A DNA stretch of 64,000 nt from an uncultured Pelagibacteraceae bacterium. GTDB lineage: Bacteria; Pseudomonadota; Alphaproteobacteria; Pelagibacterales; AG-422-B15. The translations under genes were made by a program, and so were the position numbers. The notes beneath the pieces are model-generated. The model had not been told where the DNA came from and ran no database searches. It was given only the letters and a program-made list of their open reading frames with translations. Location: positions 4,492-68,491 of the forward strand of contig CACCAS010000003.1 of NCBI GenBank assembly GCA_902544065.1. The letters run 5' to 3'. This document shows, one piece after another, positions 7,861 through 60,069 of the stretch. The first letter of the stretch is position 1; each line of letters begins with the position of its first letter.

Positions 7861-7862
7861 TA

Positions 7863-10882: not shown

Positions 10883-11046
10883 TTATTTATAATACCAATA
10901 ATGAGACTAATATAAGCAATAAAGTAGAAAGAGTCTTAGATTATAATATCTTATACACAAAAAAAATTTAATTTTTTTTGTGATTTTAAAAGTTGACTGG
11001 GAATAAAAAAGACAGTTAAACTCCCCCTAAAGATTAAGGGTGCGAC

Positions 11047-11310
11047 ATGTCAACATATCAAGATACTAAAGATCAATTCAATAATACCATTGCTAACCTT
11101 GGCAGAGAGGTTGAAAAATTGTCACAAGAAGCAAAAAAAGTTTCGTCTCTTGAAAATGAAAATGCAAAACTTCTAAGTGAAAATAACCACCTTGAAAACG
11201 AAATTAAAATCTTAAAATCTGATTTTCTAGAGCTCAAAAATATTGCCGGAAATATTTCATCTCAGCTTGATGAAAACATTTATACAATTAAAGACATATT
11301 GGATTCATAA
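11047..11310 (+). CDS. Small coiled-coil protein upstream of zapA (ZauP/DUF4164-like position)
   Basis: 87 aa with heptad-rich sequence (LENENAKLLSENNHLENEIKILK). The position immediately 5' of zapA matches other alphaproteobacteria. Confidence 0.55.
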   Translation: MSTYQDTKDQFNNTIANLGREVEKLSQEAKKVSSLENENAKLLSENNHLENEIKILKSDFLELKNIAGNISSQLDENIYTIKDILDS

Positions 11311-28022: not shown

Positions 28023-28295
28023 ATGAACCAGAGAATTTTACTATTCATAGTTATTTTTTTAGGATTTTTAATTATTGTTGGCACTACTGTTGTAATCACA
28101 ACTGTTATTGAAAGATCTAAAAATGTTGATTTTTTCGAAAACACTAATGATACTGAATTCCATAGCATATGTGGAACATCAGGCATCGAAGATGTCATTA
28201 AACTTGAAGATCAACAAATACTGATCAAATGTTTTGATGGTCCAGTATATATTTACGACTCTAAGAAAAACAAGATTATTACTGAAATTAATTAA
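28023..28295 (+). CDS. Small membrane-anchored protein, unknown function
   Basis: N-terminal TM ILLFIVIFLGFLIIVGTTVVITTVI followed by a roughly 55-aa soluble part. Confidence 0.4.
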   Translation: MNQRILLFIVIFLGFLIIVGTTVVITTVIERSKNVDFFENTNDTEFHSICGTSGIEDVIKLEDQQILIKCFDGPVYIYDSKKNKIITEIN

Positions 28296-29884
28296 TTATT
28301 TACAATTAAATCAGACGCTTTTTCAGCAATCATTACAGTTGATGCGTTTAAATTACCAGTAATGATATTAGGCATAATTGATGCATCTATGACTCTTAAA
28401 CTATCTATTCCATATACTTTGAGTTCCTCGTCTACCACTGATCGATCATCTTTGCCCATTTTACACGTACATGATGGGTGGTAAGCAGTATCTCCTTTAT
28501 CTCTTATAAAATTATTAAGATCCTCATCATTATTTAAATTGCTTCCTGGTGAGATTTCATCTCCTCTATAATCATCGAATTCTTTTTGATTAAATATCTC
28601 CCTTGCAATTTTTATTCCTTCTCGCATTTCTCTAAGATCATGTTCAGTTTGCATATAATTGAATTGGATTGAAGGTGCATCGTTTGGATTATTTGATTTT
28701 AATTTTACTGATCCTCTGCTGGTAGGTCGCATCGGTCCAACATGGGCTTGAAAAGCATGGCAGGTAGAACTCTTTCTACCATGATCTAAAACTAAAGATG
28801 GAAAAAAGTGGAATTGTATATTTGGATAATCAGACATTTCATTACTCCTCACAAAGCCACCTGTTTCTAAATTAGAATGTGCAGCAACACCTGTTTTAAA
28901 CAAAAACCATTGGGCACCTATCAATGCCATTTTTAATGGGTTCTGAGCACTGTGCAGTGTTACAGGCTTTTTACATTTATATTGAACATACGTTTCAAGA
29001 TGATCTTGTAAGTTTTTACCAACTCCTTCCAAACACTCTAATGGCTTAATACTATGTTTTGACAATTCATTTTCTGGGCCAATTCCAGAAAGCATGAGTA
29101 ATTGAGGCGAATTTATAGCCCCAGCAGAAAGAAGGACCTCTCTAGTTGAAAAATATATTTTATTTTTACCATTCTCTTTGCATTCAACTCCAACAGCTTT
29201 TTTATTTTCAAATAGTATCTTATTTACAGTTACGTTTGTTAATATCTCCAAGTTAGATCTGTGCATTATTGGATGGAGATACGTAACGCTCGTACTTTGT
29301 CTCTTTCCATTAAAAATGGTTGTATCCATTAAACCAAAACCTTCTTGTTTTTTGCCATTCATATCATTATTTATTTGATACCCAGCTTGTTGAGCGGCAT
29401 TTAAATAAACTTGACTAAGAATATTACCATTGGGGGATCTTGACAGTTTCAAAGGCCCTGAATCGCCTCGAAAATTTGAGTCCAAGCCATCAACTGACTC
29501 AGATTTTTTAAAATAGGGCAAAACTTTATCGTAAGTCCAATCTGTTAAACCTAACTGTCCCCAGTTATCAAAATCTTTTGAATTACCTCTTACATGAACC
29601 ATTCCATTGTGCGAGGAACTTCCTCCCAACATCTTGCCTCTGGGGCAGAACATAGTCCTATTATGCATAAATGGTTCTGGCTCAGACTCATAAAGATAAT
29701 TATATTTTGGATCGTGCATTGTATAAAGTAATGCTGCGGGCATTGCAGTTTTCCATGTCTTGTCTGAAGGTCCAGACTCAATAAGAAGGACATTAATAGA
29801 CGTATTTGATGAAAGTCGATTAGCTAGTACACAACCAGCGCTACCAGCTCCAATTATAATATAATCAAAGTTATTTAATTTCAT
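28292..29884 (-). CDS. betA: GMC-family flavoprotein oxidoreductase, choline dehydrogenase-like
   Basis: DYIIIGAGSAGCVLANRLS FAD fold, GGSSSHNGM, C-terminal HPSCTCKMG active-site region; 530 aa. Confidence 0.8.
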   Translation of the reverse strand: MKLNNFDYIIIGAGSAGCVLANRLSSNTSINVLLIESGPSDKTWKTAMPAALLYTMHDPKYNYLYESEPEPFMHNRTMFCPRGKMLGGSSSHNGMVHVRGNSKDFDNWGQLGLTDWTYDKVLPYFKKSESVDGLDSNFRGDSGPLKLSRSPNGNILSQVYLNAAQQAGYQINNDMNGKKQEGFGLMDTTIFNGKRQSTSVTYLHPIMHRSNLEILTNVTVNKILFENKKAVGVECKENGKNKIYFSTREVLLSAGAINSPQLLMLSGIGPENELSKHSIKPLECLEGVGKNLQDHLETYVQYKCKKPVTLHSAQNPLKMALIGAQWFLFKTGVAAHSNLETGGFVRSNEMSDYPNIQFHFFPSLVLDHGRKSSTCHAFQAHVGPMRPTSRGSVKLKSNNPNDAPSIQFNYMQTEHDLREMREGIKIAREIFNQKEFDDYRGDEISPGSNLNNDEDLNNFIRDKGDTAYHPSCTCKMGKDDRSVVDEELKVYGIDSLRVIDASIMPNIITGNLNASTVMIAEKASDLIVNN

Positions 29885-29929
29885 GAAATGATTTTATCAA
29901 ACATTATATTTATAGTACAACATTAGATA

Positions 29930-30826
29930 ATGTTAAAAAACTTAAATCCAAGTTTGGCAATAGTATTATCTACTCTGCTTTGGGGAACATGGTGGTATCC
30001 TCTTCGTTTGTTAAATGAGTATGCAAGCAATAATGCAATACCTTTAACATTAAGCTTTATGCTTGCTGGTTTTTTACTTCTTAGTTTTTCGCTAAAGAAT
30101 GTACATTTATTTACTAAAAAAAATATAATACTTACGATAATTGCAGCGACTGCTGGTGCGGCAGCAATGTGTCTCTACAATGAGGGACTATTACGTGGTA
30201 ATGTCGCACGGATTTTAATATTTTTTTATCTTACAGCTGTTTGGAGCACAATTATTGAGATTGTATTTTTAAGAACTCCTTTAACCATATACAGGGCTTT
30301 TTCCATAGCAGCAGGTTTCACAGGTCTTTTTATTATAACAGGGTTAGATAAAGGTAATATTTTGCCAAGTTCTCTTGCTGATCTATTTGGAATCGCCTCT
30401 GGTTTTTTGTGGTCTGTTTGTGCAACAGTAATTAGAATTAATAAGGAATTGGACGTTAACTTTGGAACTTCAATCTTTATTCTCATTGGTGGATTATTTG
30501 TTATTATTGCGACACTTTTACCTAATGGACAAGTACTCGCAGGTTTCAATACTGTAATAATGTATAATACTTACATAATCATTCTCATTTTTGCTTTCAT
30601 TTGGTTGCTTCCTGGATACTGGCTTATCACTTTCGGCCAAGATCAAGTCGATCCAGGTAGAGCTGGAATTTTACTTATGTTCGAAGTTGTTATTGGCATT
30701 ATATCTGCATATCTTTTAGCCAATGAAATTATTACCATGCGAGAATTCATTGGCGCGGTATTTGTTATGAGCGCTCCATTGATTGAAATTTATGCTGGAA
30801 ATAAATTATATAAATCAGTCGTTTAG
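29930..30826 (+). CDS. EamA/DMT-superfamily transporter (about 10 TM)
   Basis: 298 aa, uniformly hydrophobic with two repeated 5-TM halves. Confidence 0.65.
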   Translation: MLKNLNPSLAIVLSTLLWGTWWYPLRLLNEYASNNAIPLTLSFMLAGFLLLSFSLKNVHLFTKKNIILTIIAATAGAAAMCLYNEGLLRGNVARILIFFYLTAVWSTIIEIVFLRTPLTIYRAFSIAAGFTGLFIITGLDKGNILPSSLADLFGIASGFLWSVCATVIRINKELDVNFGTSIFILIGGLFVIIATLLPNGQVLAGFNTVIMYNTYIIILIFAFIWLLPGYWLITFGQDQVDPGRAGILLMFEVVIGIISAYLLANEIITMREFIGAVFVMSAPLIEIYAGNKLYKSVV

Positions 30827-30925
30827 CATTTTTGAATATTTAAAAAAAATTATACTTTTTTTCCCTAGATAGAGACCTAGTTATATGTTTCAATCAACTA
30901 CTAATAAAACAAATTGGAGAAAATA

Positions 30926-31921
30926 ATGAATTTTTTTAAGAGAATTTTTTTTGCTGCTGTCTTTGCAGTAAGTTTCGGATCTCTTAGTTCGACAGCCAAT
31001 GCTTGCGGTACAATAACAGTTGCTGAAATGAACTGGGCATCTGCTGAAATGTTTGCGCATGTCGATAAGATGATTCTTGAAAATGGTTATGGTTGTGATG
31101 TAGAGCTTGTTCCAGGTGATACTATGCCAACCGCGACATCTATGATGGAAAAAGGTGAGCCAGATGTAGCTCCTGAATTATGGATAAATGCTGTTAGAGT
31201 TGCACTTGATGCAGCAACGAGCGAAGGAAGATTACATTACGCAGCTGAAGTTTTATCTGACACTGGTGAAGAAGGCTGGTGGATTCCGCAATATATGGCC
31301 GATGCAAACCCCGATATTCAAACTGTATATGATGTACTAGAACGTCCTGAATTATTTCCTCATCCTGAAGGAGGAAATGGTGCAATTTATACTTGTCCCT
31401 CAGGTTGGAATTGTCAAATAAGTACTGGTAATTTGTTTAATGCATATGGAATGGAAGCCAAAGGTTTTAGGCTTGTAGATCCTGGTTCTGGTGGTGCTCT
31501 TGCTGGAGCAATTGCTGAAGCTTATAACAAAGGCGAGGGATGGCTCGGATATTACTGGGCACCAACAGCTGTATTGGGAAAATACCCAATGAAAAAACTT
31601 AGCTTTGGAGTAGAACACAGCAAAGAGGAGTGGGACAATTGTACTTCTCAAGACGGATGTGCAGATCCAAAACCTAATGCATGGGTTGTATCTGAAGTTT
31701 ATACAGTTGTGACTGACAACTTCAAAAATGAGTCAGCAACGGGTATGGAATATATCTCAAAACGAGCACTTCCCAACTCAACTGTAAATGCTTTGCTTGC
31801 TTGGAAAGATGATAATCAGGCAACTGGTGAAGACACTGCAATTTACTTCTTAGAAAATTACACTGAATGGCATGACTGGGTAGACAGTAGTGCACGTTCA
31901 AAAGTAGAAGCAGCTTTATAA
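30926..31921 (+). CDS. proX: Glycine betaine/quaternary-amine ABC transporter substrate-binding protein
   Basis: Signal peptide MNFFKRIFFAAVFAVSFGSLSSTANA. OpuAC-type pattern (ITVAEMNWASAE, Trp-rich box WWIPQY, GWLGYYWAP). Followed by proW/proV. ATG at 30926 (the track's TTG is at 30914). Confidence 0.85.
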   Translation: MNFFKRIFFAAVFAVSFGSLSSTANACGTITVAEMNWASAEMFAHVDKMILENGYGCDVELVPGDTMPTATSMMEKGEPDVAPELWINAVRVALDAATSEGRLHYAAEVLSDTGEEGWWIPQYMADANPDIQTVYDVLERPELFPHPEGGNGAIYTCPSGWNCQISTGNLFNAYGMEAKGFRLVDPGSGGALAGAIAEAYNKGEGWLGYYWAPTAVLGKYPMKKLSFGVEHSKEEWDNCTSQDGCADPKPNAWVVSEVYTVVTDNFKNESATGMEYISKRALPNSTVNALLAWKDDNQATGEDTAIYFLENYTEWHDWVDSSARSKVEAAL

Positions 31922-31934
31922 AAAAAATAATATT

Positions 31935-31955
31935 GCGGGCTAATAATTAGCCCGC
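31935..31955 (+). terminator. Intra-operon stem-loop between proX and proW (attenuator or mRNA stabiliser)
   Basis: gcgggctaa-taa-ttagcccgc: perfect 9-bp stem, the strongest GC hairpin in this region, 14 nt after the proX stop and 10 nt before the proW ATG. Confidence 0.55.
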
Positions 31956-31965
31956 ATTATATTCA

Positions 31966-32862
31966 ATGAATTTATCAGAATTATTTATCACTTTTCCTGA
32001 AATGAGTAAGGAAAGTCTTCGGATATTTAAAAAGTCCATAGATGGGGCTTATAGGAACTTCTCAAGAGAATATGGCGATGCAATTGAAGCTGTATTTGAT
32101 CCTGTATTATATTTTTTAGTTTGGTTTGAAAAACTATTACAAAACTCACCTTGGCCATTAGTAATTTTAGTAATTCTTATACTAGTTTATTTAGGTAGCA
32201 GAAGTATCTATCTAACAATTGGATCATTATTTGCACTACTTCTTATAGGCTACTTTGGTATGTGGGAAGATACAATGTCAACTGTCAGTATCATTGGCGT
32301 ATGTACTTTCATGTCTATAGGTCTTGGAATACCAATTGGCATTGCAATGTCAAACTCTGACCGAGCTCGAGCCGCCATTACCCCTATTCTTGATGTGATG
32401 CAAACTATGCCTTCATTTGTGTATTTGATTCCAGTCGTAATGCTTTTAGGAATTGGAAAAATCCCAGGTTTACTCGCAGTTATTATTTATGCCATCCCGC
32501 CCATTATTAGACTAACTGACTTAGGAATTAGAGAAGTTGATAAGGAAGTTCTTGAAGCGGCTGATGCTTTTGGCGCAAATAAGAGGCAAAAGTTATTTAG
32601 AGTTCAATTGCCACTTGCCTTACCTACTATATTTGCAGGAATTAACCAAACTATAATGATGGCACTAGCAATGGTTGTCATAGCTTCGATGATTGGAGTT
32701 AAGGGTCTTGGTCAGCCAGTATTAAAGGCAATTACCAACCAGTATTTTACTATGGGGTTACTTAATGGACTTGCTATTGTCGCATTAGCAATAATATTTG
32801 ATCGAGTTTCACAATCTTTTGGAAAAAGATTACAACAACATAGGTCAGGTTCTCGTGAATAA
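31966..32862 (+). CDS. proW: Glycine betaine/proline ABC transporter permease
   Basis: BPD-transporter EAA-like loop ([24 protein letters not shown]); 6-7 TM. Confidence 0.9.
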
Positions 32863-33871
32863 TACGAAGATCAAAATATCTAACCTTTATAAAATTTTTG
32901 GCAATAACTCTAAAAAATATATTCCAAAAGTACGTAGTGGTATGTCAAAAGATGAACTACTTACTAAATATAATCATGTATTAGGTTTAGATGACATCAA
33001 CTTGAATGTTGCTGAGCAATCTATACAGGTAGTCATGGGTTTATCTGGGTCAGGTAAGTCAACATTAATTAGACATATAAACAGATTGATTGAACCAACA
33101 GAGGGAAGTGTATTGATTGATGATCAAGATATTACAAAACTGAATAATTCTGAATTACTTGAATTCAGAAGAAATCGAACTGGTATGGTCTTTCAGAGGT
33201 TTGCTCTTTTTCCTCATCATAATATTATTGATAATGTTAAATTTGGTCTCAGTATAAAAAATGTAGAAAAAGCAGAGTCAAATGACAAAGCAATGTTCTG
33301 GATTGATAAAGTGGGCTTAAATGGTTTTGAATATAAGTTTCCTAATCAGTTATCAGGAGGAATGCAACAAAGGGTCGGCTTAGCAAGAGCTCTTGCAACT
33401 GATCCAGATATTCTGCTGATGGATGAGGCTTTTAGTGCTCTTGATCCACTAATCAGAACTGATATGCAAGACCAGCTATTAGAGTTACAAAAAAATTTAA
33501 AAAAAACTATTATGTTTATAACCCATGATCTTGATGAGGCATTAAAATTAGGTGATCGTATTTCAATACTTAACGGTGGGAAACTTGTTCAAGATGGCAC
33601 TGCTGAGGACATATTAATGAGTCCTGCTGATGAGTACGTCAAAAACTTTGTAAAAGACGTTAATAGAGCTAAAGTTTTAAAAATAAAATCAATTATGAAT
33701 TTTTCAGGAGTTCAGAATAATTCTGATGCTTTTGTAAAACTAGATGACAATATAGAAAGCTGTTTGCCAAAAATACTTGAAAGCGAACATGAATTAAATG
33801 TATTTGATGATAAGAATAAATTCGTAGGCTTGATCTCAAGAAATAATGTTGCAGATATTCTTAAAAATTAA
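32855..33871 (+). CDS. proV: Glycine betaine/proline ABC transporter ATP-binding protein
   Basis: GLSGSGKST Walker [16 protein letters not shown] signature, [11 protein letters not shown] Walker B, short CBS-like tail. I favour the GTG at 32855 (8-nt overlap with proW). The track start at 32798 overlaps proW by 65 nt. Confidence 0.88.
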
Positions 33872-35010
33872 GGATTTAAATTATTCAAATAATTTAGTCT
33901 TCCTATAATTTCATCTCTATCTATATAATATCCCTGCAAGTGTCTCTCACCAGAATTGGCATCGTATTCTTTTCGACCGTGAAGTACTCGTCTATTATTA
34001 AAGCTGAATATATCCCCAGCTTTAAGTCTGAAATTTATTTCAAATTTAGGATCGTGAAGTAAAGCGATTAGTTTTCGGTAAGCTTCGTAAAACTTATCCA
34101 TTTGGTTGGGGCTACAATCCATAACTCCCATATAAGCAACACTAAACCTTATATCGTTAAAATCATTATTATGATCTAAAGAAAATAGAGGTTTATGCAT
34201 TACCCTTATAGTATTTGAAGTATAATCTCTATTTACAAATTTGACAGGCGTCTCTAAAAGAGTTTCAAAATATTCTGTATAATTTGCTTTCATGTAACTA
34301 GCAACTTTGAAACCATCTACTGCAACCGACTCGCCTCCAGAAGCATTGTTGATCAAGCAATGCAAGAATTGATATCCTGGTGCTATTTCATAGTATGGAA
34401 GATCTAAATGGTTCCTTAATGCAGCTGCGGTATAAGCAGAATTGTTAGGATTAGGAATATCAATAACTTCAAAAGGTGTTTTAAAAAAGGTTTCTCTATG
34501 GTGACTAATATTAGCAATTACATCAAAACCAGATTCCTTATCCGTGGGTGCATTTTTAACAATAGAAATACCTTTGTAGTGAAGCTGCTCAAGCCACTTT
34601 TTAATTCCATCATCTCCACTAATAATTTCCTTATAGTCTATTTGAATATCTTCCAAATTAGATTCTATACTATGGTCCCATAGAAAATATGGCGAAATGT
34701 ATGTTTTTTTACTTTTAAGTGTGTAGCAATTATGTCTGAGCCAATCGCTATCATAGTAGCTTGTATGATCACCTTCACTCCATTCAATTACAAGCGCCCC
34801 TTTATCATTTATCTTATAAGACTTTGGATGTATATCATCTGTAACCGTTAAAAGGTTGAAAGTTCTCTCTCTTGCAGTTGGATGAACTTCTGATGGGCAA
34901 TTATCTCTCAGCCATAAAAAATTAAATTTACTTTGCTCACCATCGCTCCAATCAACTAGTATTGATTTACCATTCTTTTTCAACGACGATATAGATGGAT
35001 TATGATTCAT
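33868..35010 (-). CDS. Gamma-butyrobetaine dioxygenase-like Fe(II)/2-oxoglutarate oxygenase (DUF971 plus TauD fold)
   Basis: 380 aa. N-terminal DUF971-type block ([22 protein letters not shown]), H-x-D (NHLDLPYY), distal His (VLHGRKEY). Adjacent to carnitine dehydrogenase and BKACE. Confidence 0.75.
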
Positions 35011-35013
35011 AAA

Positions 35014-35985
35014 CTATTTAAAATTATTGTATTTACTACCCCAATTTGGAAACTTATCTTTTTGATTTTTATTTAAAGTTTTCATAATTTCAATCAAAAA
35101 TAAATCTCTTTGTTCCTCAAGCTCTTTGATACTAAATTTCCCAGCCTGTTTTTTCGTGCCAGAAATCATTGATTCTTTCAGTTTACTCGATAATTCAGGC
35201 GCTTTCAATTTAGTCCAAGGCAGCTTTAGAGCAGGACCAAACTGCTCTAGCATATGTTTCATTCCCGTTTCTCCACCAGCTAAATGAAATGTTAAACATA
35301 CCCCCATAAAGGCCCATCTTAATCCAGGCCCGTACACAATAGCGTCATCAACTTCTTCAGTTGATGCTACGCCATCATTTATTATATGTAAGGCCTCACG
35401 CCATAAAGCTTCTTGAAGTCTATCTGAAATGTATCCTTCTATCTCTTTTCGAATAACAAGGGGTCGCATTCCAATATGTTCATATATTTTTTTTAATTTT
35501 TTTACATTTGTATGACTAGTTTTTTTACCAGCTACAATCTCAACAAGTGGTAACAAGTATACTGGATTAAATGGATGTCCAATTAATACCCTTTCAGGAA
35601 ACTTACATATAGATTGAATTTTTGATGGTAGTAATCCAGAGGAACTGGATGCAATCATAATATTTTTTGGAATTATACTATCAATTTTTTTTAGAATATT
35701 TTTTTTAATTTTTTCATTTTCCGGTGCATTTTCTTGAACAAAGGTTGTTTCATGTAAAGCATCATTAAGGTTAGTAAAAACTTTAAGTTTATTCAATGAA
35801 GCATGTTTATTTAAACCTATCTTTTTAAGACTTTTAAATGCAAAACGAATATTTTTTTTTAATTTCTTAAGTGAGTTAATATTTGGGTCATAAGCTTTAA
35901 CAATATAGCCTTTAGCAAGAAATCTTGCCGCCCATCCAGCACCAATTACACCTGTTCCAATAATCGAAACAATTTTTTTTTTCAA
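35014..35985 (-). CDS. L-carnitine dehydrogenase-type 3-hydroxyacyl-CoA dehydrogenase family protein
   Basis: [20 protein letters not shown] Rossmann N-terminus; 323 aa. Co-directional with and overlapping a BKACE gene, as in known carnitine loci. Confidence 0.7.
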
Positions 35986-36866
35986 CGTTTTAATCCAAGA
36001 TGCATTCTTGCTTCATCAGGACCCATTACATTTGAGCCTAAATTATTAATTATTGTAGCAGCTTTTTCAACAAGTGATCCATTCGTAGCATAAACGCCTT
36101 TTTCTAAATAAAGATTGTCTTCAAGTCCAACTCTAACATTGCCTCCTAATAAAACAGCTTGTGCTACCATCGGCATTTGATTAATTCCGATTCCAAATGC
36201 CCCCCAGTTACTTCCTTTAGGTATCATATCAACCATATTTTTCATTGACCCAGTTGTAGCGGGCGCACCGTAGGGTATACCTAAACAAATTTGAAATAAT
36301 AATGGCTGATCTAGTAAGCCTTCTTCTAACATCTGATTTGCAAACCATAAATGACCTGTATCAAAGACTTCAAGTTCTGGTTTAACCCCTAATTCTTGAA
36401 TTCTCTTAGCACCTATCCTTAGTTGTTCAGGGGTTCCAACATAGATCATATTTCCATCACCAAAATTTAGAGTACCGCAATCTAAGGAACATATATCAGG
36501 CAGTAGTTCTTCAATATGACTCAGTCTTTCAAGTGCATTTACAAAATCTGTATTAGAACCAAAGTTTAATAAATCATCTTCTGGACCAATTTCTATATCT
36601 CCTCCCATTCCACTTGTGAGATTAATTATCACATTAGTCCCACTATCTTTAATTCGGCTAACTACTTCTTTATAAAGTTCATTATCTCGGGATCCCTTTC
36701 CAGTTTCAGGATTTCGAACATGAATATGGGCTATGGCAGCTCCAGCATTAGCAGCTTCAATAGACGCGTTTGCTATTTCCTCAGGAGTAACAGGAATATT
36801 AGGATGCTTGCCAACAGAGTCTCCTGATCCAGTAACTGCACAGGAAATTATAATATTTTTATTCAT
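35982..36866 (-). CDS. BKACE-family (DUF849) beta-keto acid cleavage enzyme, dehydrocarnitine-cleaving type by context
   Basis: [13 protein letters not shown]...[32 protein letters not shown], the characteristic BKACE N-terminal block; 294 aa. Confidence 0.75.
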
Positions 36867-36935
36867 AAGATTATGAAGTTACAATATTAAAAAGAATTTA
36901 CAATTTGAATAGTATAGTATGTAATAAAAAACAAA

Positions 36936-38360
36936 ATGAAAAATCTTCAAAAATTTTATATTAACGGTAAATGGGTTACACCGAAATCAACTAAAACAAT
37001 GGCAGTTCTCAACCCTGCAACTGAAGATTTGATAGGTGAGATAATCCTTGGTAATTCTAAAGATGTAGATATCGCCGTGAGTGCTGCAAAAAATGCATTT
37101 AATAGCTTTTCTAAAACCTCAAAGAATGATCGTTTAGAATTACTTAATAAAATTAGGCAGATTTCTGAAAAAAGGTTTGAAGATCTTGCAGATGCAATGA
37201 CATCTGAAATGGGAGCTCCTCATAGAATGGCTAGAGATGCGCAGGCAGATGCAGCAATAGGACATTTAGATGGTTTTATTGATGCATTAAAGAAGCATGA
37301 AGAAAAAATTGTTCTTTCTAATACAGATGTACTTTTAAAAGAGCCAATAGGAGTTTGTGGTTTAATTACTCCCTGGAACTGGCCCATTAATCAAATTACA
37401 TTGAAAGTACTTCCTGTGATTGCTACAGGATGTACATGTATTTTAAAGCCATCTGAGCATACACCTTTATCAGCGATGGTTTATGCTGAAATTCTTGATG
37501 AGGCTGGAGTCCCTGATGGCGTATTTAATTTAGTACACGGAGATGGAGAAGGGGTAGGCGTGTCGATGTCTCGGCATCCAGATATAGAAATGATGTCATT
37601 TACTGGCTCAAAAAGAGGAGGTAAGTCAGTTACCATTGAATCTGCTGAGACTGTAAAAAAAGTAACATTAGAATTAGGCGGCAAATCACCCAACATTGTA
37701 TTTGCGGACTGTGACTTAGAGGAAAAAGTAAAAGCTTCAGTAAATGAATGTATGTTTAATACTGGACAATCTTGTGATGCTCCTACAAGGTTACTGGTAG
37801 AAAAAAAATGCTACGATGAGGTAATTGATATTGCAAAAAAAACTGCTGAAGAAATTAAGGTAGGGGATCCGACACTAGACGGTGACCATCTCGGGCCACT
37901 CTTTGATAAAATACAATTTGATCGAGTTCAGAATATGATTCAAGTTGGTATTGATGAGGGAGCAAAATTACTAGCAGGGGGCCTTGGAAAGCCTGATGGT
38001 CATGAAAAAGGATGGTTTGTAAAGCCAACAATTTTTTCTGATGTAAAGAATAATATGAGAGTTGCTCAAGAAGAAATATTTGGTCCAGTACTAGTTATAA
38101 TTCCTTTTGATGACGAGGATGAGGCAATCAGAATAGCAAATGATACTCCTTATGGTCTTGCTGCCTATCTGCAAACGGGAGATAAAGAAAGAGCTGAACG
38201 TGTCTCAAGGCAATTAAGAGCAGGTGGTGTTCATGTTAATGGTGGTGGTTATAATTATGGTTCACCTTTCGGGGGATATAAAGAATCTGGTAATGGCCGA
38301 GAAGGTGGAGACATGGGGCTAGAAGATTACCTTGAAACTAAAGCACTTCACATTGCTTAA
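36936..38360 (+). CDS. NAD(P)-dependent aldehyde dehydrogenase (betaine aldehyde or trimethylaminobutyraldehyde dehydrogenase candidate)
   Basis: ITPWNWP, LELGGKSP (catalytic Glu), FNTGQSCDAPTR (catalytic Cys), EEIFGPV; 474 aa. Confidence 0.85.
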   Translation: MKNLQKFYINGKWVTPKSTKTMAVLNPATEDLIGEIILGNSKDVDIAVSAAKNAFNSFSKTSKNDRLELLNKIRQISEKRFEDLADAMTSEMGAPHRMARDAQADAAIGHLDGFIDALKKHEEKIVLSNTDVLLKEPIGVCGLITPWNWPINQITLKVLPVIATGCTCILKPSEHTPLSAMVYAEILDEAGVPDGVFNLVHGDGEGVGVSMSRHPDIEMMSFTGSKRGGKSVTIESAETVKKVTLELGGKSPNIVFADCDLEEKVKASVNECMFNTGQSCDAPTRLLVEKKCYDEVIDIAKKTAEEIKVGDPTLDGDHLGPLFDKIQFDRVQNMIQVGIDEGAKLLAGGLGKPDGHEKGWFVKPTIFSDVKNNMRVAQEEIFGPVLVIIPFDDEDEAIRIANDTPYGLAAYLQTGDKERAERVSRQLRAGGVHVNGGGYNYGSPFGGYKESGNGREGGDMGLEDYLETKALHIA

Positions 38361-38380
38361 GAATAATAAAATATTATGAT

Positions 38381-40327
38381 ATGCCAAGGTTGCTTTGGAG
38401 CCCATCTAAGAAAAGAGTAAAAAAAACAAACCTATATAATTACTTTCTATTTTTAGAAGAAAAAAACAAAATTCAATTAAGTTTTGATTATAGTAAAATC
38501 TGGTCCTGGAGTATTAATCATCCTGCTGAATTTTGGTTAAGCTTAATAGATTATTTAGGCATAAAGTACACAGGAAGCTCTAGCCCAGTTATTGAAAAGG
38601 ATAATTTTATATACAGTCAAAAATTTTTTAAAAATATTAAAATTAATTATGCCGAAAATATTTTATCTAATCTTAACTCATGCCCGATTACCTTTATCAA
38701 TGAACTTGGTTTCAAGAAAAGTTATTATAAGGAAGATTTAGTATCAAAAACGTCAATATTAGCTAACTATTTTAGATCTATAGGGGTTAAAAAAGGAGAT
38801 CGGATTACGGCTGTTTCGGTAAACAGTGCTGAGACACTAATTGCATTTTTGGCGGTGAACTCTATCGGGGCGATCTGGTCATCTTGCTCGCCAGATTTTG
38901 GCGAGGCAGCTATTTTAGATCGTTTTAACCAAATAAAACCAAAGATATTATTATATTCTAAAATTTATCTATATGGTGGAAAAAAATTTAATATTGAAAA
39001 GAAAATAAAAAATGTAATTAATAATATCAAAACACTCGAACATACTATTTGTATTAATTATCCAGACAAGAAACTGGATAAAGGAATAGATGAAATAAGT
39101 TTAAATTCAATTTTTCAAAAAGAAACTTATCAAGAAAAAATTATTTTCGAAGAAAACTCATTTAATGACCCAATGTATATTCTTTATTCTAGTGGAACAA
39201 CCGGTAAACCTAAATGCATAGTTCATAATACTGGTGGACCACTTCTACAACATGCAAAGGAGCAACAGCTTCATTGTGATCTTAAAATAGGTGACAAATT
39301 ATTTTATTATACAACCTGTGGATGGATGATGTGGAACTGGCTTATTACAGGTTTAGCGTCAGGAGTTTCATTAGTACTTTATGATGGATCCCCATTTTAT
39401 CCAGACAAAGAAGCCCTTTTTAAAATTGCTGAAGAAGAAGAAATAACGTGCTTTGGAACAAGTGCAAAATTTATTGATGCTTTAAGAAATGATAAGGTAA
39501 ATATTCTAGAAAAATATAATTTAGCTAAACTTCAATCAATATTAAGCACAGGTTCACCACTTATAAGTGAGAGTTTTGAGTATGTGTACAAATTCATTAA
39601 AAAAGATATACATCTGGCGTCCATTAGTGGAGGGACAGACATTGTTTCTTGCTTTGTTGGCGGCAATCCAATGTTGCCAGTTTACTCTGGCGAAATACAA
39701 AGTAAGTGTCTTGGGGTAGATGTAGATGTTCTTGATGAAAAAGGTCAGGGTACGCTTCAAAAAGGTGAGCTGGTATGTAAATCACCGCTTCCATCTATGC
39801 CGATTGGATTTTGGAATGACTTAAATAAAGAGAAATATATTAAATCATACTTTTCAAAATTTAAGAATGTATGGACACAAGGTGATTACGCTAAAATATC
39901 TCAAAATAATGGAATAGTCATTTATGGACGGTCAGATTCAACATTAAATCCTGGTGGAATTAGAATTGGAACTGCCGAAATATATAGGTCTGTCGAGCAA
40001 ATAGATGAGATTGTTGAGTCTATTGTAGTTGGCCAGTCTTGGAACAATGACACAAGAATTATTTTATTTGTGAAACTTCAAAACGATATTGAACTTGATC
40101 AAGTTATTACTGATAAAATTAAATATAATATTAGATCTTCTAATTCTATAAGACATGTACCCGCAAAAATTATTAAAGTAAGTGATATACCTAGAACAAG
40201 AAGTGGTAAAATAGCAGAAATTACTGTGAGAGATATAATCAATGGCATGAATATTAAGAATTTAGAGGCTTTAGCCAATCCTGCTTGTTTATCGGAATAT
40301 GAAAATATTGAAGAATTAAAAAATTAG
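38381..40327 (+). CDS. Acetoacetate-CoA ligase (acetoacetyl-CoA synthetase)
   Basis: 648 aa. LLWSPS N-terminus typical of acetoacetyl-CoA synthetases, AMP-binding YSSGTTGKPKCIVH, C-terminal PRTRSGKI. Confidence 0.8.
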   Translation: MPRLLWSPSKKRVKKTNLYNYFLFLEEKNKIQLSFDYSKIWSWSINHPAEFWLSLIDYLGIKYTGSSSPVIEKDNFIYSQKFFKNIKINYAENILSNLNSCPITFINELGFKKSYYKEDLVSKTSILANYFRSIGVKKGDRITAVSVNSAETLIAFLAVNSIGAIWSSCSPDFGEAAILDRFNQIKPKILLYSKIYLYGGKKFNIEKKIKNVINNIKTLEHTICINYPDKKLDKGIDEISLNSIFQKETYQEKIIFEENSFNDPMYILYSSGTTGKPKCIVHNTGGPLLQHAKEQQLHCDLKIGDKLFYYTTCGWMMWNWLITGLASGVSLVLYDGSPFYPDKEALFKIAEEEEITCFGTSAKFIDALRNDKVNILEKYNLAKLQSILSTGSPLISESFEYVYKFIKKDIHLASISGGTDIVSCFVGGNPMLPVYSGEIQSKCLGVDVDVLDEKGQGTLQKGELVCKSPLPSMPIGFWNDLNKEKYIKSYFSKFKNVWTQGDYAKISQNNGIVIYGRSDSTLNPGGIRIGTAEIYRSVEQIDEIVESIVVGQSWNNDTRIILFVKLQNDIELDQVITDKIKYNIRSSNSIRHVPAKIIKVSDIPRTRSGKIAEITVRDIINGMNIKNLEALANPACLSEYENIEELKN

Positions 40328-40341
40328 TTTTATATTTTTTT

Positions 40342-41433
40342 ATGGATTTTAATTATGACTCAAAAGAAATTAGGTTTTCTATTGGAGATGAGCAATATAA
40401 GCTTCATCCTTTATGGATGAGAGAACGGTCATTAGAAGAAGGAGCAGTCGATCAAAATTCACTACAACGACTATATGACCCAGAGAAAATCATTGAAAAT
40501 TTAGAAATCAAAGAAGTAAATAAGTTAGACGAAGATAAACTGTTAATTAAATTCTCAGATAATCATATAGCTAAGTATTGTATAAAAAACTTAATTAAAG
40601 AAATAAAGAGAGCCAAAGGACTTCCTGATAAAGTTTTTTGGAATAAAGACAATATCTCACTCAGAAAGTTTAAATTTGATTACAATACGAATGAAAATAA
40701 ACAAATTTATGAGATATTAAAATATTATCATAGATACGGATTTGCAATTGTCAGCAAACTCAAACCCGAAGATGGTGAGATTATAAATTTTGCAAAAAAA
40801 ATTGGATATATTAGAGAAACTAATTTTGGAAAATTGTTTAACGTTAAGTCTCAAAAACAACCAAACGATTTAGCATATACATCCATTGAATTAGAGTCTC
40901 ATACTGATAATCCATATCGAAAACCAGTACCTTCTATTCAATTTCTTTTTTGTATTCATAATAGTTGCCAAGGAGGCGACTCAACAATTGTTGATGGGTT
41001 TAAGGTTGCAGAAGACTTAAAAAATGAAAATCCGAATGCGTTTAATACCCTTACGAATACTCTTATCAATTTTAAATTTAAAGACAAAGATGCTATACTG
41101 GAAAAAACAGGTAAGATCATTAAGTTAAGTGAACGAGGAGAGATAAAGCAAATAAAGTATAGCAACAGACTGGATTTTGTTTTTTATCAAGACCCTAAAA
41201 AGCTTAATGAATTTTATGCGTCAAAAAGAGTGATTCACAAAATGATAAATTCTTCTAAATATATATTTAAGTTTCGCTTAGAACCAGGAGATTTAATTAT
41301 TATGAATAATTATCGAACACTTCATGGCAGAACAAGTTATAATACAGCTGAAGGCAATAGATGGCTACAGGGATTATATATAGACCATGACTCCGCAGAA
41401 AGTAAATTTAAATTATTATCAGAGGAAATATAA
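40342..41433 (+). CDS. BBOX/TauD-family Fe(II)/2OG oxygenase, TmpA/PhnY-like by context
   Basis: 363 aa. DUF971-like N-terminus (FSIGDEQYKLHPLWMRER), H-x-D (ESHTDNPY), distal His (TLHGRTSY). Its stop TAA is immediately followed by the ATG of the HD protein. Confidence 0.7.
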   Translation: MDFNYDSKEIRFSIGDEQYKLHPLWMRERSLEEGAVDQNSLQRLYDPEKIIENLEIKEVNKLDEDKLLIKFSDNHIAKYCIKNLIKEIKRAKGLPDKVFWNKDNISLRKFKFDYNTNENKQIYEILKYYHRYGFAIVSKLKPEDGEIINFAKKIGYIRETNFGKLFNVKSQKQPNDLAYTSIELESHTDNPYRKPVPSIQFLFCIHNSCQGGDSTIVDGFKVAEDLKNENPNAFNTLTNTLINFKFKDKDAILEKTGKIIKLSERGEIKQIKYSNRLDFVFYQDPKKLNEFYASKRVIHKMINSSKYIFKFRLEPGDLIIMNNYRTLHGRTSYNTAEGNRWLQGLYIDHDSAESKFKLLSEEI

Positions 41434-41985
41434 ATGGAAAAAGTAAAATTTACTCAGATGAAAGATGGCACAAAAGAAGATTATGATCTTTTAAGTAAGT
41501 ATGAAGAAAAGTTTTCAAAAGATCTTCCTGATAGAATACTAGATGCTTTGAGAAATTTAGATAGTTCAGTTGATGGTTATCAAGTAACAAGGTTAGAGCA
41601 TTCACTTCAATCAGCAACTCGAGCTGAAAAAGATGGCGCAGATGAAGAAATGGTGGTGGCAACTCTTGTACACGATATTGGAGATAATCTTGCCCCATAT
41701 AATCATAGTCAACTTGTTGCCTCAGTTTTAAGGCCCTACGTTTCTGAAAAAGTATATTGGATTATGCTTCATCACGGGATTTTTCAAGAATATTACTATG
41801 CTCATCACATAGGGAGGGATCGACATGCTAGAGAAAAATTAAAAGATCATCCTTACTATCAAGATGCAGTGGATTTTTGTGAAAAGTGGGATCAAAAGTC
41901 ATTTGATCCAGATTATGAATCCTATTCTCTTGAATACTTTGAACCAAAAGTAAGGAAGCTTTTCTCTAAGGAGCCAAATTTTTAA
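41434..41985 (+). CDS. HD-domain protein, candidate mixed-valent diiron oxygenase (TmpB/PhnZ-like) rather than a phosphohydrolase
   Basis: 183 aa. Ordered candidate metal ligands H56 (LEH), H80-D81 (LVHDIGD), H91, H113-H114, later Asp residues. Directly abuts the BBOX-like gene. Confidence 0.55.
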   Translation: MEKVKFTQMKDGTKEDYDLLSKYEEKFSKDLPDRILDALRNLDSSVDGYQVTRLEHSLQSATRAEKDGADEEMVVATLVHDIGDNLAPYNHSQLVASVLRPYVSEKVYWIMLHHGIFQEYYYAHHIGRDRHAREKLKDHPYYQDAVDFCEKWDQKSFDPDYESYSLEYFEPKVRKLFSKEPNF

Positions 41986-43112
41986 GCAATCTTTCTCACA
42001 ATAACATTCCCCACAGAATAACCTGCCCCAAAAGAGCAAATTATTGCAAGATCATCTTTTTTTAGTGAGTTGTTATGTTTATGAAAAGCAATTATTGAAC
42101 CTGCAGAACTTGTGTTAGCATATTCATCAAGAACGACGGGAGCTAGATCTCTAGACGCTTCTTTGCCAAGTACATATTTAGAAATAAGAACATTCATATT
42201 TTCATTTGCTTGATGTAAATACATTCCCTTTAAATCCTCGGCGGAAAGTTTATTTTCTTCTAAATGACCCTTTATTAAATTAGAAACTTTAGGGATGACT
42301 TCTTTGAATACCTTCCTTCCGTTTTGATGGAACAGTTTATCTGCCTTACCGACTCCTTCAGGAGATGAATTATTCAGAAATCCATAATTATTTCTTATAT
42401 TATTAGAAAACTCTGTAAGAAGCTTTGTCCCAAGTATTTCATACGAATTATTTTTATGAATTTCTTTATTTATTCTCTCTAAAACTACGGCTGTTGCAAC
42501 ATCACCAAATATAAAATGACAGTCCCTATCTTTGAAATTTAAATGACCAGTACAAATCTCTGGGTTGACCATTAAGGCTGATTTGATACTCCCACTTTTT
42601 ATCATGTCAAAAATGGCTTGAATTCCAAAAGTGGCTGAGGAACAAGCAACATTCATATCGAATGCAAATCCATCTATGCCTAACTCATTTTGAATTTCAA
42701 TAGCTATAGCAGGGTAGGCACGTTCTAAATTTGAGCATGCAACAATTACCGCATCTATCTCTTTAATATCGATTTGGGAATTCTTTATAGCCTCTTTTGC
42801 GGCAACTACTCCCATTTCTGCAAGATTGGATATTTGATCCTCAGATCTTTCAATAAGTCTCGGACGCATAAAGGATGTATCCAAAATTCCTGATTTATTT
42901 TGAACATATCTTGATTTTACACCTGATGCTTTTTCAATGAACTCTGAACTAGATTTTTCAAGCGGCACAATGCTTCCATTATTTATATCGCTAGCGTTTG
43001 ATAAATTATATTCATCCACATACTTGTTAAATGAGTCGACTAATTCTTCGTTAGAAATTTTTTCTTTGGGTGTGTATAGTCCAGTTCCCGAGATTTGTAC
43101 TTTAAACATCAA
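41982..43112 (-). CDS. Beta-ketoacyl-ACP synthase III-like condensing enzyme (long form, 376 aa)
   Basis: Active-site Cys (NVACSSATFG), His (YLHQANENMN), Asn (YANTSSAGSI), C-terminal FGAGYS. Confidence 0.75.
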   Translation of the reverse strand: MMFKVQISGTGLYTPKEKISNEELVDSFNKYVDEYNLSNASDINNGSIVPLEKSSSEFIEKASGVKSRYVQNKSGILDTSFMRPRLIERSEDQISNLAEMGVVAAKEAIKNSQIDIKEIDAVIVACSNLERAYPAIAIEIQNELGIDGFAFDMNVACSSATFGIQAIFDMIKSGSIKSALMVNPEICTGHLNFKDRDCHFIFGDVATAVVLERINKEIHKNNSYEILGTKLLTEFSNNIRNNYGFLNNSSPEGVGKADKLFHQNGRKVFKEVIPKVSNLIKGHLEENKLSAEDLKGMYLHQANENMNVLISKYVLGKEASRDLAPVVLDEYANTSSAGSIIAFHKHNNSLKKDDLAIICSFGAGYSVGNVIVRKIA

Positions 43113-43327: not shown

Positions 43328-43398
43328 GCTTATTCTCCTGTTGATTTATAGATACTATATTTATTTCAATGCCAAATACAATTAATATATCAAGAAAT

Positions 43399-43647
43399 AT
43401 GAAATTCTTTGTTTATATCATTGGAACAAAATACCCAAAAGTACAAACATATGTAGGATGGAGTAATGATATTAAAAAAAGACTAAAAGCACATAATGAA
43501 TCTAAAGGAGCAAAGTTTACAAGAGGATCTAAATGGAAATTGTTATATCAAGAAGAGTTATTCTCAAAATCAGAAGCAATGAAAAGAGAGGTACAATTAA
43601 AAAAAGATAGACAATTAAGATCTCAGCTAAGAAATAAATTAATTTGA
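43399..43647 (+). CDS. GIY-YIG (URI) domain nuclease-superfamily protein
   Basis: FFVYII....YVGWSNDIKKRLKAHN...GAKFTR......LLY.E.F.SKSEAMKRE.QLKK. Start taken at MKFFVYII (the track start is 43369). Confidence 0.75.
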   Translation: MKFFVYIIGTKYPKVQTYVGWSNDIKKRLKAHNESKGAKFTRGSKWKLLYQEELFSKSEAMKREVQLKKDRQLRSQLRNKLI

Positions 43648-44085: not shown

Positions 44086-44162
44086 GCGTCCATAGCTCAA
44101 CTGGATAGAGCATCAGACTTCGGATCTGAGGGTTGAGGGTTCGAATCCTTCTGGGCGCACCA
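44086..44162 (+). tRNA. tRNA-Arg (anticodon UCG)
   Basis: Manual fold: acceptor GCGTCCA/TGGGCGC, D arm gctc-aactggata-gagc, anticodon arm tcaga-cTTCGga-tctga, T arm gaggg-ttcgaat-ccttc, encoded CCA; 77 nt. Confidence 0.9.
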
Positions 44163-44169
44163 AGAAAAT

Positions 44170-44769
44170 ATGAAGATATACAAACCATTTGGACCTACAA
44201 TCGGAAAAACAAAACTGACTTTAAGTGCAGTTGCTCGCCTAAATAAATTTTCTGAACAGGTATCTAATAATAAAAGACTTTCAAAAAGATACGATTATGA
44301 CCACAGATTAGTAGGAAGTATGAAGCAGCAATTTAGGATACCCTCAAAAATCTTAAAAATTGGTATTGAAAAACAAATTATTAAATCTGTAAAAGATTAT
44401 TATGATAAAACACTTAATATTAAAGTAAAAAAAATAAGGATCGAAAAGGCTTGGATCGTCAGTCAATTTGCTGGAGATTTTAATCCACCTCATTTACATA
44501 GAGGTAACATTAGTGGAGTAGGGTATTTAAAGATACCAAGTTCAATTAAACGTAATAAAGAAAAAGATTTAGCTGGTTTAATTTCTTTCTTTGATGGTCG
44601 AGTGTCTCTTCCAAGAAATAGCCCACCGCTCGTGAAACACAGAGAGACTTTTAAGCCCAGAGTGGGTGATTTATATATATTTCCATCATTTCTAATGCAT
44701 GACGTTCACCCTTTTAGAGGAGATGGTGAAAGAAGGTGCTTTTCCTTTAATGCATTTGTTGACGCATAA
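44170..44769 (+). CDS. TIGR02466-like putative 2OG-Fe(II) oxygenase
   Basis: PPHLHRGNISGVGYL ... GDLYIFPSFLMHDVHPF ... RRCFSFNAF matches the H-x-H...SGV.Y / FPS.L.H.V.P / R.S.SFN pattern of this family. Confidence 0.7.
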   Translation: MKIYKPFGPTIGKTKLTLSAVARLNKFSEQVSNNKRLSKRYDYDHRLVGSMKQQFRIPSKILKIGIEKQIIKSVKDYYDKTLNIKVKKIRIEKAWIVSQFAGDFNPPHLHRGNISGVGYLKIPSSIKRNKEKDLAGLISFFDGRVSLPRNSPPLVKHRETFKPRVGDLYIFPSFLMHDVHPFRGDGERRCFSFNAFVDA

Positions 44770-59992: not shown

Positions 59993-60069
59993 GGCGGGGT
60001 AGCTCAGTTGGTTAGAGCGGAGGAATCATAATCCTTAGGTCGGGGGTTCAAATCCCTCTCCCGCTACCA
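59993..60069 (+). tRNA. tRNA with CAU anticodon (elongator Met, or Ile2 if lysidinylated)
   Basis: Manual fold: acceptor GGCGGGG/TCCCGCT (G1-U72 and G7-U66 wobble pairs), D arm gctc-agttggtta-gagc, anticodon arm gagga-atCATaa-tcctt, T arm ggggg-ttcaaat-ccctc, encoded CCA; 77 nt. Confidence 0.88.

Follow-up and report, generated by a model that had tools for sequence, protein, structure and literature searches.

The window analysed here, a stretch of 64,000 nucleotides from an uncultured Pelagibacteraceae bacterium of the SAR11 group, carries two abutting genes, referred to below as OXY and HD, for a hydroxylase and an HD-domain protein. A first-pass annotation of this DNA had taken them for a candidate TmpA/TmpB (PhnY/PhnZ-type) pair, cleaving the carbon-phosphorus (C-P) bond of a phosphonate. 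On balance, the pair more probably constitutes a coupled two-step oxidative system of the kind represented by PhnY/PhnZ and by TmpA/TmpB that belongs to distinct sister families, acts on a trimethylammonium-type substrate, and probably breaks a bond other than C-P. The pair and its junction are laid out as follows.

40342-41433, forward strand: OXY, an Fe(II)/2-oxoglutarate (2OG) hydroxylase of the BBOX/TmpA family, 'D-type' clade, 363 aa
41434-41985, forward strand: HD, an HD-domain protein of a sister family of PhnZ/TmpB, 183 aa
41422-41436, forward strand: OXY-HD junction, with a GAGG Shine-Dalgarno sequence (41422-41425), the OXY stop codon TAA (41431-41433) and the HD start codon ATG (41434-41436)

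Reading frames, lengths and the abutment of TAA and ATG are as first described. The HD start codon follows the OXY stop codon with a gap of zero nucleotides, and the GAGG sequence lies within the 3' end of OXY, 8 nt before that ATG; OXY and HD are translationally coupled at this junction. The pairing is also not a product of chance. It is a recurrent SAR11 arrangement, the two genes are adjacent at 13 of the 80 species-representative loci encoding the HD family that were surveyed (the genome scan used a closer set of 11 sequences), and eukaryotes carry them as fusions.

OXY matches Pfam TauD (PF02668, E = 2.4e-40), with a weaker match of its N-terminal domain to GBBH-like_N. The H-x-D motif (ESHTDNPY) and distal histidine (TLHGRTSY) picked out at first pass are the facial triad H187-x-D189 and H328, which, together with the 2OG-binding R340, align with the ligands of TmpA and of gamma-butyrobetaine hydroxylase (BBOX) and are invariant in 32 homologues with identities down to 31%. 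Among the NCBIfam models OXY scores best with TmpA (NF049936, 338.8 bits), then with BBOX (TIGR02409, 293 bits) and trimethyllysine hydroxylase (TIGR02410, 186.4 bits). The equivalog cut-offs are 400, 414.75 and 268.3 bits, respectively, and OXY was accordingly rejected as a TmpA, as a gamma-butyrobetaine dioxygenase and as a trimethyllysine dioxygenase equivalog; partner oxygenases in other genomes also miss the TmpA cut-off (316-354 bits). A sequence search of the PDB places TmpA first at 197 bits, against 155 bits for human BBOX, and identity is 31-33% to TmpA, 29% to human BBOX and 27% to BBOX2, a second BBOX-family paralogue in the window. A neighbour-joining tree unites the D-type proteins with TmpA, and with another TmpA-like group as third member (signature E-N / N-[NS]-R-S), in a superclade set apart from BBOX-like proteins at 90% bootstrap support; OXY falls outside TmpA proper, whose clade has 99.5% support. 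The structure model of OXY gives near-equal Foldseek matches to TmpA (E = 6.6e-34) and BBOX (2.6e-32) that do not separate the two, and its substrate loop (residues 174-196) has a pLDDT below 50. By these comparisons OXY is best placed in a separate, uncharacterised D-type clade and not in TmpA proper.

The active site of OXY combines retained and altered features. The aromatic-cage positions F162, F166 and Y179 align with Y/F/Y in TmpA and Y177/W181/Y194 in human BBOX, an assignment that draws in part on BBOX structures. The cage role of these positions in TmpA and BBOX comes in part from published work, in which the phosphonate ligands of TmpA are N187, N287 and R288 and the carboxylate ligands of BBOX are N191 and N293 (PMC9296572). 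The OXY equivalents of the three TmpA ligands are D176, N275 and R276, of which only R276 is TmpA-like; position 275 is P, T or N across the D-type clade, and there is an extra invariant aspartate, D278. The D-type signature, D176 plus S-x-R276-L-D278 where TmpA has N187 plus N-N287-R288-S-S, is present in all 120 closest homologues of OXY and in 12 of the 13 oxygenases encoded directly upstream of HD, the exception (locus L078) being of a more BBOX-like type. Of the pocket residues compared, the cage positions are kept, and the phosphonate residues other than R276 are not. The N-terminal domain of OXY is without the Zn-binding cysteines of human BBOX, reading LWMRERSLEEGA where the human protein has VWLRDNCPCSDC.

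The HD protein carries the ordered series H...HD...H...HH...D that had been read from its translation, as H56, H80-D81, H91, H113-H114 and D153. Its putative diiron ligands H56, H80, D81, H91, H114 and D153 are invariant or nearly so, forming the most conserved columns among 42 relatives (36-61% identity), and align one-to-one with those of PhnZ and TmpB; all six are invariant in the seven sequences aligned for residue comparison (four HD-family members, TmpB of Leisingera caerulea, TmpB of Halomonas urmiana and PhnZ). As a TmpB or PhnZ equivalog the HD protein was rejected by all three curated models, scoring 37.7 bits with TmpB (NF049941, cut-off 300), 40.1 bits with the PhnZ-type model (TIGR03276, cut-off 214.6) and 29.6 bits with PhnZ1 (NF052439, cut-off 300), and the matches span only about 40 residues around the first histidine and the HD motif. 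Among solved structures, only PhnZ and TmpB are matched significantly by sequence (family profile E ~ 1e-14). The AlphaFold model, for which the family alignment served as input (pLDDT 97.6), likewise finds PhnZ or TmpB in each of the top ten Foldseek matches to the PDB (E = 4e-7 to 2e-5, template-modelling (TM) score 0.58-0.70, identity 21-23%), PhnZ leading with E = 3.7e-7 and TM 0.69-0.70. The matches then drop sharply to MIOX (PDB 2huo), with a Foldseek probability of 1.00 and a TMq of 0.55 but an E-value of only 0.09; HD hydrolases (HD-GYP proteins, alarmone hydrolases, PgpH) follow at E > 0.1 and TM < 0.45. From these matches, fold and ligands of the HD protein are those of HD-domain oxygenases and not of nucleotide phosphohydrolases. 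The protein belongs to a large sister family of PhnZ/TmpB that is uncharacterised, and its ligands, fold and coupling to a hydroxylase are consistent with an Fe(II)/Fe(III) diiron, O2-dependent four-electron oxygenase.

These matches bear directly on a reading in which HD would be a metal-dependent phosphohydrolase, acting on a nucleotide or on a phosphoester from choline-phosphate or glycerophosphocholine breakdown, while OXY alone would hydroxylate next to a heteroatom and so give an unstable product that yields betaine aldehyde for an aldehyde dehydrogenase (ALDH). Dinuclear HD phosphatases, YqeK among them, also have the H..HD..H..H..D set (PMC8177086), 'predicted HD phosphohydrolase' is the JGI name of the family, and ALDH and GMC oxidoreductase genes recur beside the pair. 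However, confident fold matches are to PhnZ and TmpB only, with MIOX next and the hydrolases far behind, the Pfam HD match itself is under threshold at 20 bits, and repeated coupling to three kinds of hydroxylase, by fusion or in operons, suits a protein that cleaves what its partner has hydroxylated. A phosphohydrolase role is thus very improbable, the least credible of the readings considered here.

In the residues that PhnZ and TmpB share around the substrate, the HD family departs from both. Conserved between PhnZ and the two TmpB sequences are a YxxE motif, H62, K108, S126, T/S129, Q133 and R158 (PhnZ numbering). K108, S126, T129, Q133 and R158 reportedly bind the phosphonate in PhnZ; their conservation with TmpB is what the present alignment establishes. 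In the HD family YxxE is replaced by V46-D-G-Y49, with V or L at the tyrosine position and an invariant tyrosine at the glutamate position. The 11-residue insert after HDxG that holds H62 in PhnZ is missing, and D84 stands at the H62 position; the 17-residue segment holding S126 and T129 is missing as well; and K108 becomes Q118, Q133 becomes I or L, and R158 becomes E150. The family has invariant residues of its own (Y49, R53, R63, D84, W109, Q118 and R133) and a 30-residue N-terminal extension absent from PhnZ and TmpB. YxxE is a substrate-gating loop of the PhnZ/TmpB type (PMC8177086).

Five characterised systems help to place the pair. TmpA/TmpB of Leisingera caerulea (PDB 6npb-d, 6npa) convert 2-(trimethylammonio)ethylphosphonate (TMAEP) through (R)-OH-TMAEP to glycine betaine and phosphate, and here, as there, a BBOX-like 2OG hydroxylase is followed directly by an HD protein of about 185 aa. 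OXY shares with TmpA the facial triad, the 2OG arginine, the aromatic cage, an equivalent of R288 and the lack of an N-terminal Zn site, and differs at N187, which is D176 here, and in the motif S-x-R-L-D where TmpA has N-N-R-S-S. In the HD protein the fold of TmpB and all six of its ligands are kept, but at 22-28% identity, with the YxxE loop and H62 gone, Q for K108, E for R158, deletions of 11 and 17 aa, and the new 30-aa N-terminal extension. PhnY*/PhnZ (PDB 4mlm, 4mln, 4n6w) convert 2-aminoethylphosphonate through (R)-OH-AEP to glycine and phosphate by the same logic of hydroxylation and cleavage; PhnZ is the closest structural match of the HD protein, with every ligand aligned, and unlike PhnZ the HD protein has none of the substrate-binding residues that TmpB also conserves. 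OXY has a BBOX-type N-terminal domain (GBBH-like_N) before its TauD domain, one that PhnY* is not known to have. With BBOX itself (PDB 3o2g, 4bg1) OXY shares the two-domain fold (TM 0.85), the trimethylammonium cage and a setting in a carnitine island; unlike BBOX it has D176 for N191, arginine where BBOX has alanine, and no Cys3His Zn site. MIOX is an HD-domain mixed-valent diiron oxygenase with a glycol substrate that needs no partner hydroxylase, and in this independence it resembles the lone HD copies described below; it is unlike the HD protein in length (258 aa), identity (15%) and its glycol substrate. Finally, SmaO/SmaX, a 2OG hydroxylase and an HD-domain oxygenase, take aspartate through beta-hydroxyaspartate to aminomalonate by C-C cleavage next to a carboxylate, SmaX having a single iron, neither the HD aspartate nor the second-site ligands, and peptide substrates (PMC12186529). 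The likeness of the pair to SmaO/SmaX, in which a 2OG hydroxylase also precedes an HD-domain oxygenase, is drawn from the published description of SmaX; since SmaO/SmaX cleaves a C-C bond, the 2OG-HD cascade is not confined to C-P bonds.

A single genome holds the D-type pair and the canonical one side by side. In Halomonas urmiana TBZ3 (locus L015) the order is as follows.

6858-8588: D-type OXY and HD
between the D-type pair and tmpA, reverse strand: LysR gene
about 9630-10736: canonical tmpA (563 bits against a cut-off of 400), about 1 kb downstream of the D-type pair
10733-11305: canonical tmpB, overlapping tmpA, 190 aa, with YLGE, HDIGH and HVAAKRY motifs

This TmpB matches PDB 6npa with 222 bits (E = 5.5e-65). 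Because both occur at this one locus, the D-type pair and TmpA/TmpB are paralogous systems that coexist.

The distribution of the HD family shows both how often and how loosely its genes are tied to a hydroxylase. The 13 loci with a BBOX/TmpA-family oxygenase directly upstream of HD (12 of them D-type) come from SAR11, Marinomonas, Alteromonas, Halomonas, Onishia, Steroidobacteraceae and other proteobacteria. At two further loci of the 80 the oxygenase is nearby but not adjacent, at three there is a divergently transcribed TauD-family gene, and at five HD adjoins genes for BKACE and carnitine dehydrogenase; one of these last (L019) has mixed acyl-CoA, aminotransferase and GNAT genes, no OXY and no clear hydroxylase. 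At least 22 SAR11 genomes carry a lone HD gene in the context rplI-dnaB-MMPL-cvpA-purF-HD-gshA-gshB. Candidatus Pelagibacter sp. HIMB123 provides an example (L009, 1657-13009), with HD between purF and gshA and EamA and MFS genes after gshB. That the lone SAR11 gene sits in a trimethylamine N-oxide/methylamine cluster was ruled out, its neighbours being rplI, dnaB, MMPL, cvpA, purF, gshA, gshB, EamA and MFS. The predicted active-site signature of HD does not differ between paired and lone copies, and the HD tree tracks taxonomy, with paired and lone copies interleaved. D-type OXY occurs alone as well: on the SAR11 single-cell contig CACLSR010000001.1 (L081, 8001-9101) a homologue with 48% identity to the OXY of the window has no adjacent HD and is flanked by an inositol-monophosphatase-family gene and a methyltransferase gene.

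Whether adjacency reflects function at all is therefore a fair question. OXY could be a second hydroxylase of the gamma-butyrobetaine or trimethyllysine type within the carnitine island, and HD a protein with an unrelated housekeeping role, their proximity being merely organisational. The lone copies in housekeeping surroundings, which are the state of most SAR11 genomes, the lone D-type OXY at L081 and the taxonomic HD tree all fit such a view. Against it, unrelated hosts share the direct adjacency seen at 13 of 80 loci, with stop and start codons that overlap or abut; eukaryotic fusions join a D-type OXY to the HD family; and OXY misses the BBOX and trimethyllysine dioxygenase cut-offs and lacks BBOX N191. 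We regard a purely organisational link as very unlikely. Since paired and lone copies share one HD signature, the tree interleaves them and D-type OXY also stands alone in SAR11, the simplest reading is one function whose two genes are sometimes linked and sometimes scattered.

Fusions extend the association beyond bacteria. A D-type or BBOX-type hydroxylase is joined to the HD family in eukaryotes such as Saprolegnia (P0320/P0393) and Dracoamoeba (P0261), and in the prasinophyte alga Mantoniella (P0265/P0395) the HD family is fused to a fatty-acid-hydroxylase domain. Hydroxylase-HD fusions also occur among metagenome proteins (P0266/P0308/P0333/P0337); in the fusions Y49 becomes A or T, R53 becomes L and D84 becomes E. 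A third hydroxylase type, with the signature F-H-Y-[NS]-H ... [NS]-[TN]-[AQ]-[QL]-M (L004, L034, L046, L078, P0348), has HD partners with H or A at position 150. There are hints that the residue at this position, which corresponds to PhnZ R158, changes with the type of hydroxylase partner. The HD family comprises more than 7,900 clusters at 90% identity and 2,270 at 50%, is common in marine and soil bacteria, and is very abundant and widespread in SAR11, where it is perhaps near-core.

Neighbouring genes were also scanned at 13 pair loci (11 adjacent, 2 nearby) outside the arrangement found in the window. The commonest families are LysR (8 proteins), MFS (5), ALDH (4), DAO/GCV_T proteins resembling dimethylglycine dehydrogenase (3-4) and HIBADH-like proteins (3), and EamA transporters are also among the neighbours; in Marinomonas a BCCT transporter gene follows the pair, and in Halomonas the pair has a gene for a GMC oxidoreductase in its vicinity, as well as one for an enolase-superfamily protein. 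Ranked by frequency, the top 25 Pfam families of these neighbours include no phosphonate or Pho family.

The central question is then whether the pair is nevertheless a divergent, true C-P cleaving system, in which OXY would hydroxylate C1 of TMAEP or of another N-methylated or longer aminoalkylphosphonate and HD would release phosphate together with glycine betaine or a related acid. Much about the ancestry of the two proteins speaks for this: TmpA heads the OXY matches in NCBIfam, among PDB sequences and by Foldseek E-value, PhnZ and TmpB are the sole significant solved relatives of HD, and the six ligands are kept. None of the sequence-based grounds on which the first-pass annotation would have let go of its proposal came to light, because OXY is nearer to TmpA than to BBOX (it lies in the superclade that contains TmpA and not with BBOX-like proteins), HD retains the full diiron set, and the HD fold is that of PhnZ/TmpB. 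The residues around the substrate speak the other way. The TmpA N187 position is an invariant aspartate in the D-type clade, joined by a second invariant aspartate, D278; all residues common to PhnZ and TmpB around the phosphonate are changed or deleted in HD, with glutamate for R158; and both proteins miss their curated cut-offs, HD by a factor of eight. Moreover, lone SAR11 HD copies that carry the active-site signature of the paired ones lie between purF and gshA, phosphonate transporter, pho and pst families were not seen among the 25 most frequent Pfam families near the 13 pair loci, and where canonical tmpAB is present the D-type pair is an extra system. Acidic residues stand in both pockets at positions that are Asn/Arg or Lys/Arg in TmpA and TmpB, and for this reason a phosphonate substrate is judged unlikely, although it is the most serious of the competing readings.

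Several points weigh against our preference for a substrate other than a phosphonate and should be set beside it. R276 corresponds to TmpA R288, a phosphonate ligand that BBOX does not have, and OXY as a whole is nearer to TmpA than to BBOX; monophyly of the D-type clade has only 52% bootstrap support. The invariant arginines R53, R63 and R133 of the HD family could form a relocated phosphonate site. For PhnZ K108, S126, T129, Q133 and R158 the alignment itself shows conservation with TmpB, their phosphonate-binding role being a reported one, and the substrate proposal set out below draws on residue changes and gene context. The D-type pair adjoining tmpAB in Halomonas could equally mean that it handles a related phosphonate within a shared phosphonate regulon. 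Lastly, the missing Pho genes are weak evidence, because aminophosphonate catabolism can be under LysR control and phosphate-insensitive (PMC9381506).

Of the biochemical picture first proposed, the general architecture of a 2OG hydroxylase followed by an HD diiron oxygenase survives, carried by family placement, ligands and fold; the identification with TmpA/TmpB does not, given the missed cut-offs and the altered anion-site residues. The phosphonate substrate is not borne out, since anion-binding residues differ in both enzymes, HD is mostly a lone gene in SAR11, and a genuine tmpAB coexists with the D-type pair in Halomonas urmiana. The further proposal of a single substrate as source of phosphorus as well as betaine is unproven and, on the same grounds together with the lack of Pho families in the top 25, disfavoured on balance.

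The betaine transporter and betaine-related enzymes that the first-pass annotation had noted around the pair are real. Their genes, with those of the wider island, are arranged as follows.

28292-29884, reverse strand: GMC (choline-dehydrogenase-like) oxidoreductase
29930-30826: EamA transporter
30914-31921: binding protein of an OpuA-type ABC transporter
31966-32862: permease of the same transporter
32798-33871: ATPase of the same transporter
33868-35010, reverse strand: BBOX2, second BBOX-family paralogue, best score with the BBOX model, in the operon divergent from that of the pair
35014-35985, reverse strand: L-carnitine dehydrogenase, in that divergent operon
35982-36866, reverse strand: BKACE, in the same divergent operon
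36936-38360, forward strand: ALDH, first gene of the ALDH-AACS-OXY-HD run, below every NCBIfam equivalog cut-off
38381-40327, forward strand: acetoacetate-CoA ligase (AACS), directly upstream of OXY, 842 bits against a cut-off of 639
41982-43112, reverse strand: FabH-like gene, convergent with HD

The same-strand run ALDH-AACS-OXY-HD has gaps of 20 nt (ALDH/AACS) and 14 nt (AACS/OXY) before the coupled junction. At its far end the 3' ends of HD and the FabH-like gene overlap by 4 nt (41982-41985), which leaves no space there for a terminator. Scans for promoters and terminators yielded the same counts as shuffled controls and are hence uninformative, and an Rfam scan of the window found two tRNAs only and no riboswitch. 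Just downstream of the island lie a small GIY-YIG-domain open reading frame (43369-43647), one of these tRNAs (44086-44159) and a gene for a 2OG-FeII_Oxy_5 protein (44170-44769); the second tRNA is at 59993-60066.

ALDH scores 433 bits with the betaine-aldehyde dehydrogenase model in NCBIfam, against a cut-off of 669. The acetoacetate-CoA ligase would consume acetoacetate from the BKACE step of carnitine degradation, and BBOX2, accompanied by carnitine dehydrogenase and BKACE, is a better BBOX candidate than OXY. No betainyl-CoA thioesterase is visible between 28292 and 40327 of the window, and at locus L019 a 4HBT thioesterase gene adjoins BKACE. The exact order of the window, BBOX2-carnitine dehydrogenase-BKACE on the reverse strand, ALDH-AACS-OXY-HD on the forward strand and then the FabH-like gene, recurs on many SAR11 contigs, including those from Tara samples, and the region from 28292 to 40327 resembles a quaternary-amine genomic island that a recent study of Arctic SAR11 isolates describes (PMC12421898). 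The OXY-HD pair is probably co-transcribed with a catabolic island of the carnitine/gamma-butyrobetaine/choline type that funnels quaternary amines to the betaine pool. Published SAR11 proteomics of nitrogen and sulfur limitation make no mention of OXY or HD genes.

In the mechanism that we favour, OXY would, by homology, hydroxylate a trimethylammonium or similar onium compound held in the aromatic cage, probably at the carbon beta to the nitrogen. HD would then use a diiron centre and O2 to break the bond adjoining the newly formed carbinol carbon, a four-electron oxidation to which fold, ligands, fusions and operon coupling all point, and the likely product would be glycine betaine or a related betaine. 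The leaving group, to judge by the two pockets, is probably not phosphonate. A carboxylate analogue of TMAEP is our speculative guess for the substrate, favoured because it fits the retained arginine, the short TmpA-like substrate geometry and the C-C precedent of SmaO/SmaX (PMC12186529). Beta-alanine betaine, for instance, might be converted to 2-hydroxy-3-trimethylammoniopropionate and then to glycine betaine and CO2, the proposed cleavage being that of an alpha-hydroxy acid at a C-C bond, as in SmaX; this betaine has been found in marine particulate metabolomes (PMC9321204). Carnitine-type substrates are possible, as are substrates with an amino-acid or hydroxyl group bound by the aspartates, or a phosphonate site built from R53, R63 and R133.

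Both OXY and HD represent distinct, conserved and uncharacterised subfamilies with active-site signatures of their own. To our knowledge only four HD-domain oxygenases have been characterised, namely MIOX, PhnZ, TmpB and SmaX, plus the fused PhoF, and the HD family would add a fifth HD-oxygenase activity, in the ocean's most abundant heterotroph. SAR11 depends on glycine betaine for glycine and methyl groups, and the pair could reveal a new O2-dependent route by which these bacteria reach glycine betaine from quaternary amines. The question is directly testable, since cultured hosts exist (Marinomonas communis, Alteromonas, Halomonas and SAR11 isolates), and Halomonas urmiana, a cultured strain that has both systems, is an ideal test organism.

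More broadly, the finding touches on how marine phosphonate use is counted. The JGI name of HD-family members, 'predicted HD phosphohydrolase', is one that we take to be the label of COG4341. In one survey, phnZ was defined by COG4341 and TIGR00277, 45% of marine phnZ fell to Pelagibacterales, and phnZ was called dominant among marine routes of phosphonate remineralisation (PMC9381506), whereas in another study the true PhnZ and TmpB clades are rare (PMC8316502). From the shared name and a mean length of 185 aa in the survey data, the HD family is likely, though not proven, to be what the former survey counted, and the substrate of the family would settle the disagreement between the two on phnZ abundance. 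We offer, tentatively and as less probable than the coupled system itself, the further proposal that HD founds a new and abundant family of C-C-cleaving diiron oxygenases which, with the D-type hydroxylase, turns a carboxy-betaine such as beta-alanine betaine, or its sulfonium analogue dimethylsulfoniopropionate, by way of the 2-hydroxy compound, into CO2 and glycine betaine (or, for the analogue, dimethylsulfonioacetate); much of the COG4341 'phnZ' of the ocean would then be unrelated to phosphonate. The abundant marine 'phnZ' genes, in short, may not degrade phosphonates at all.

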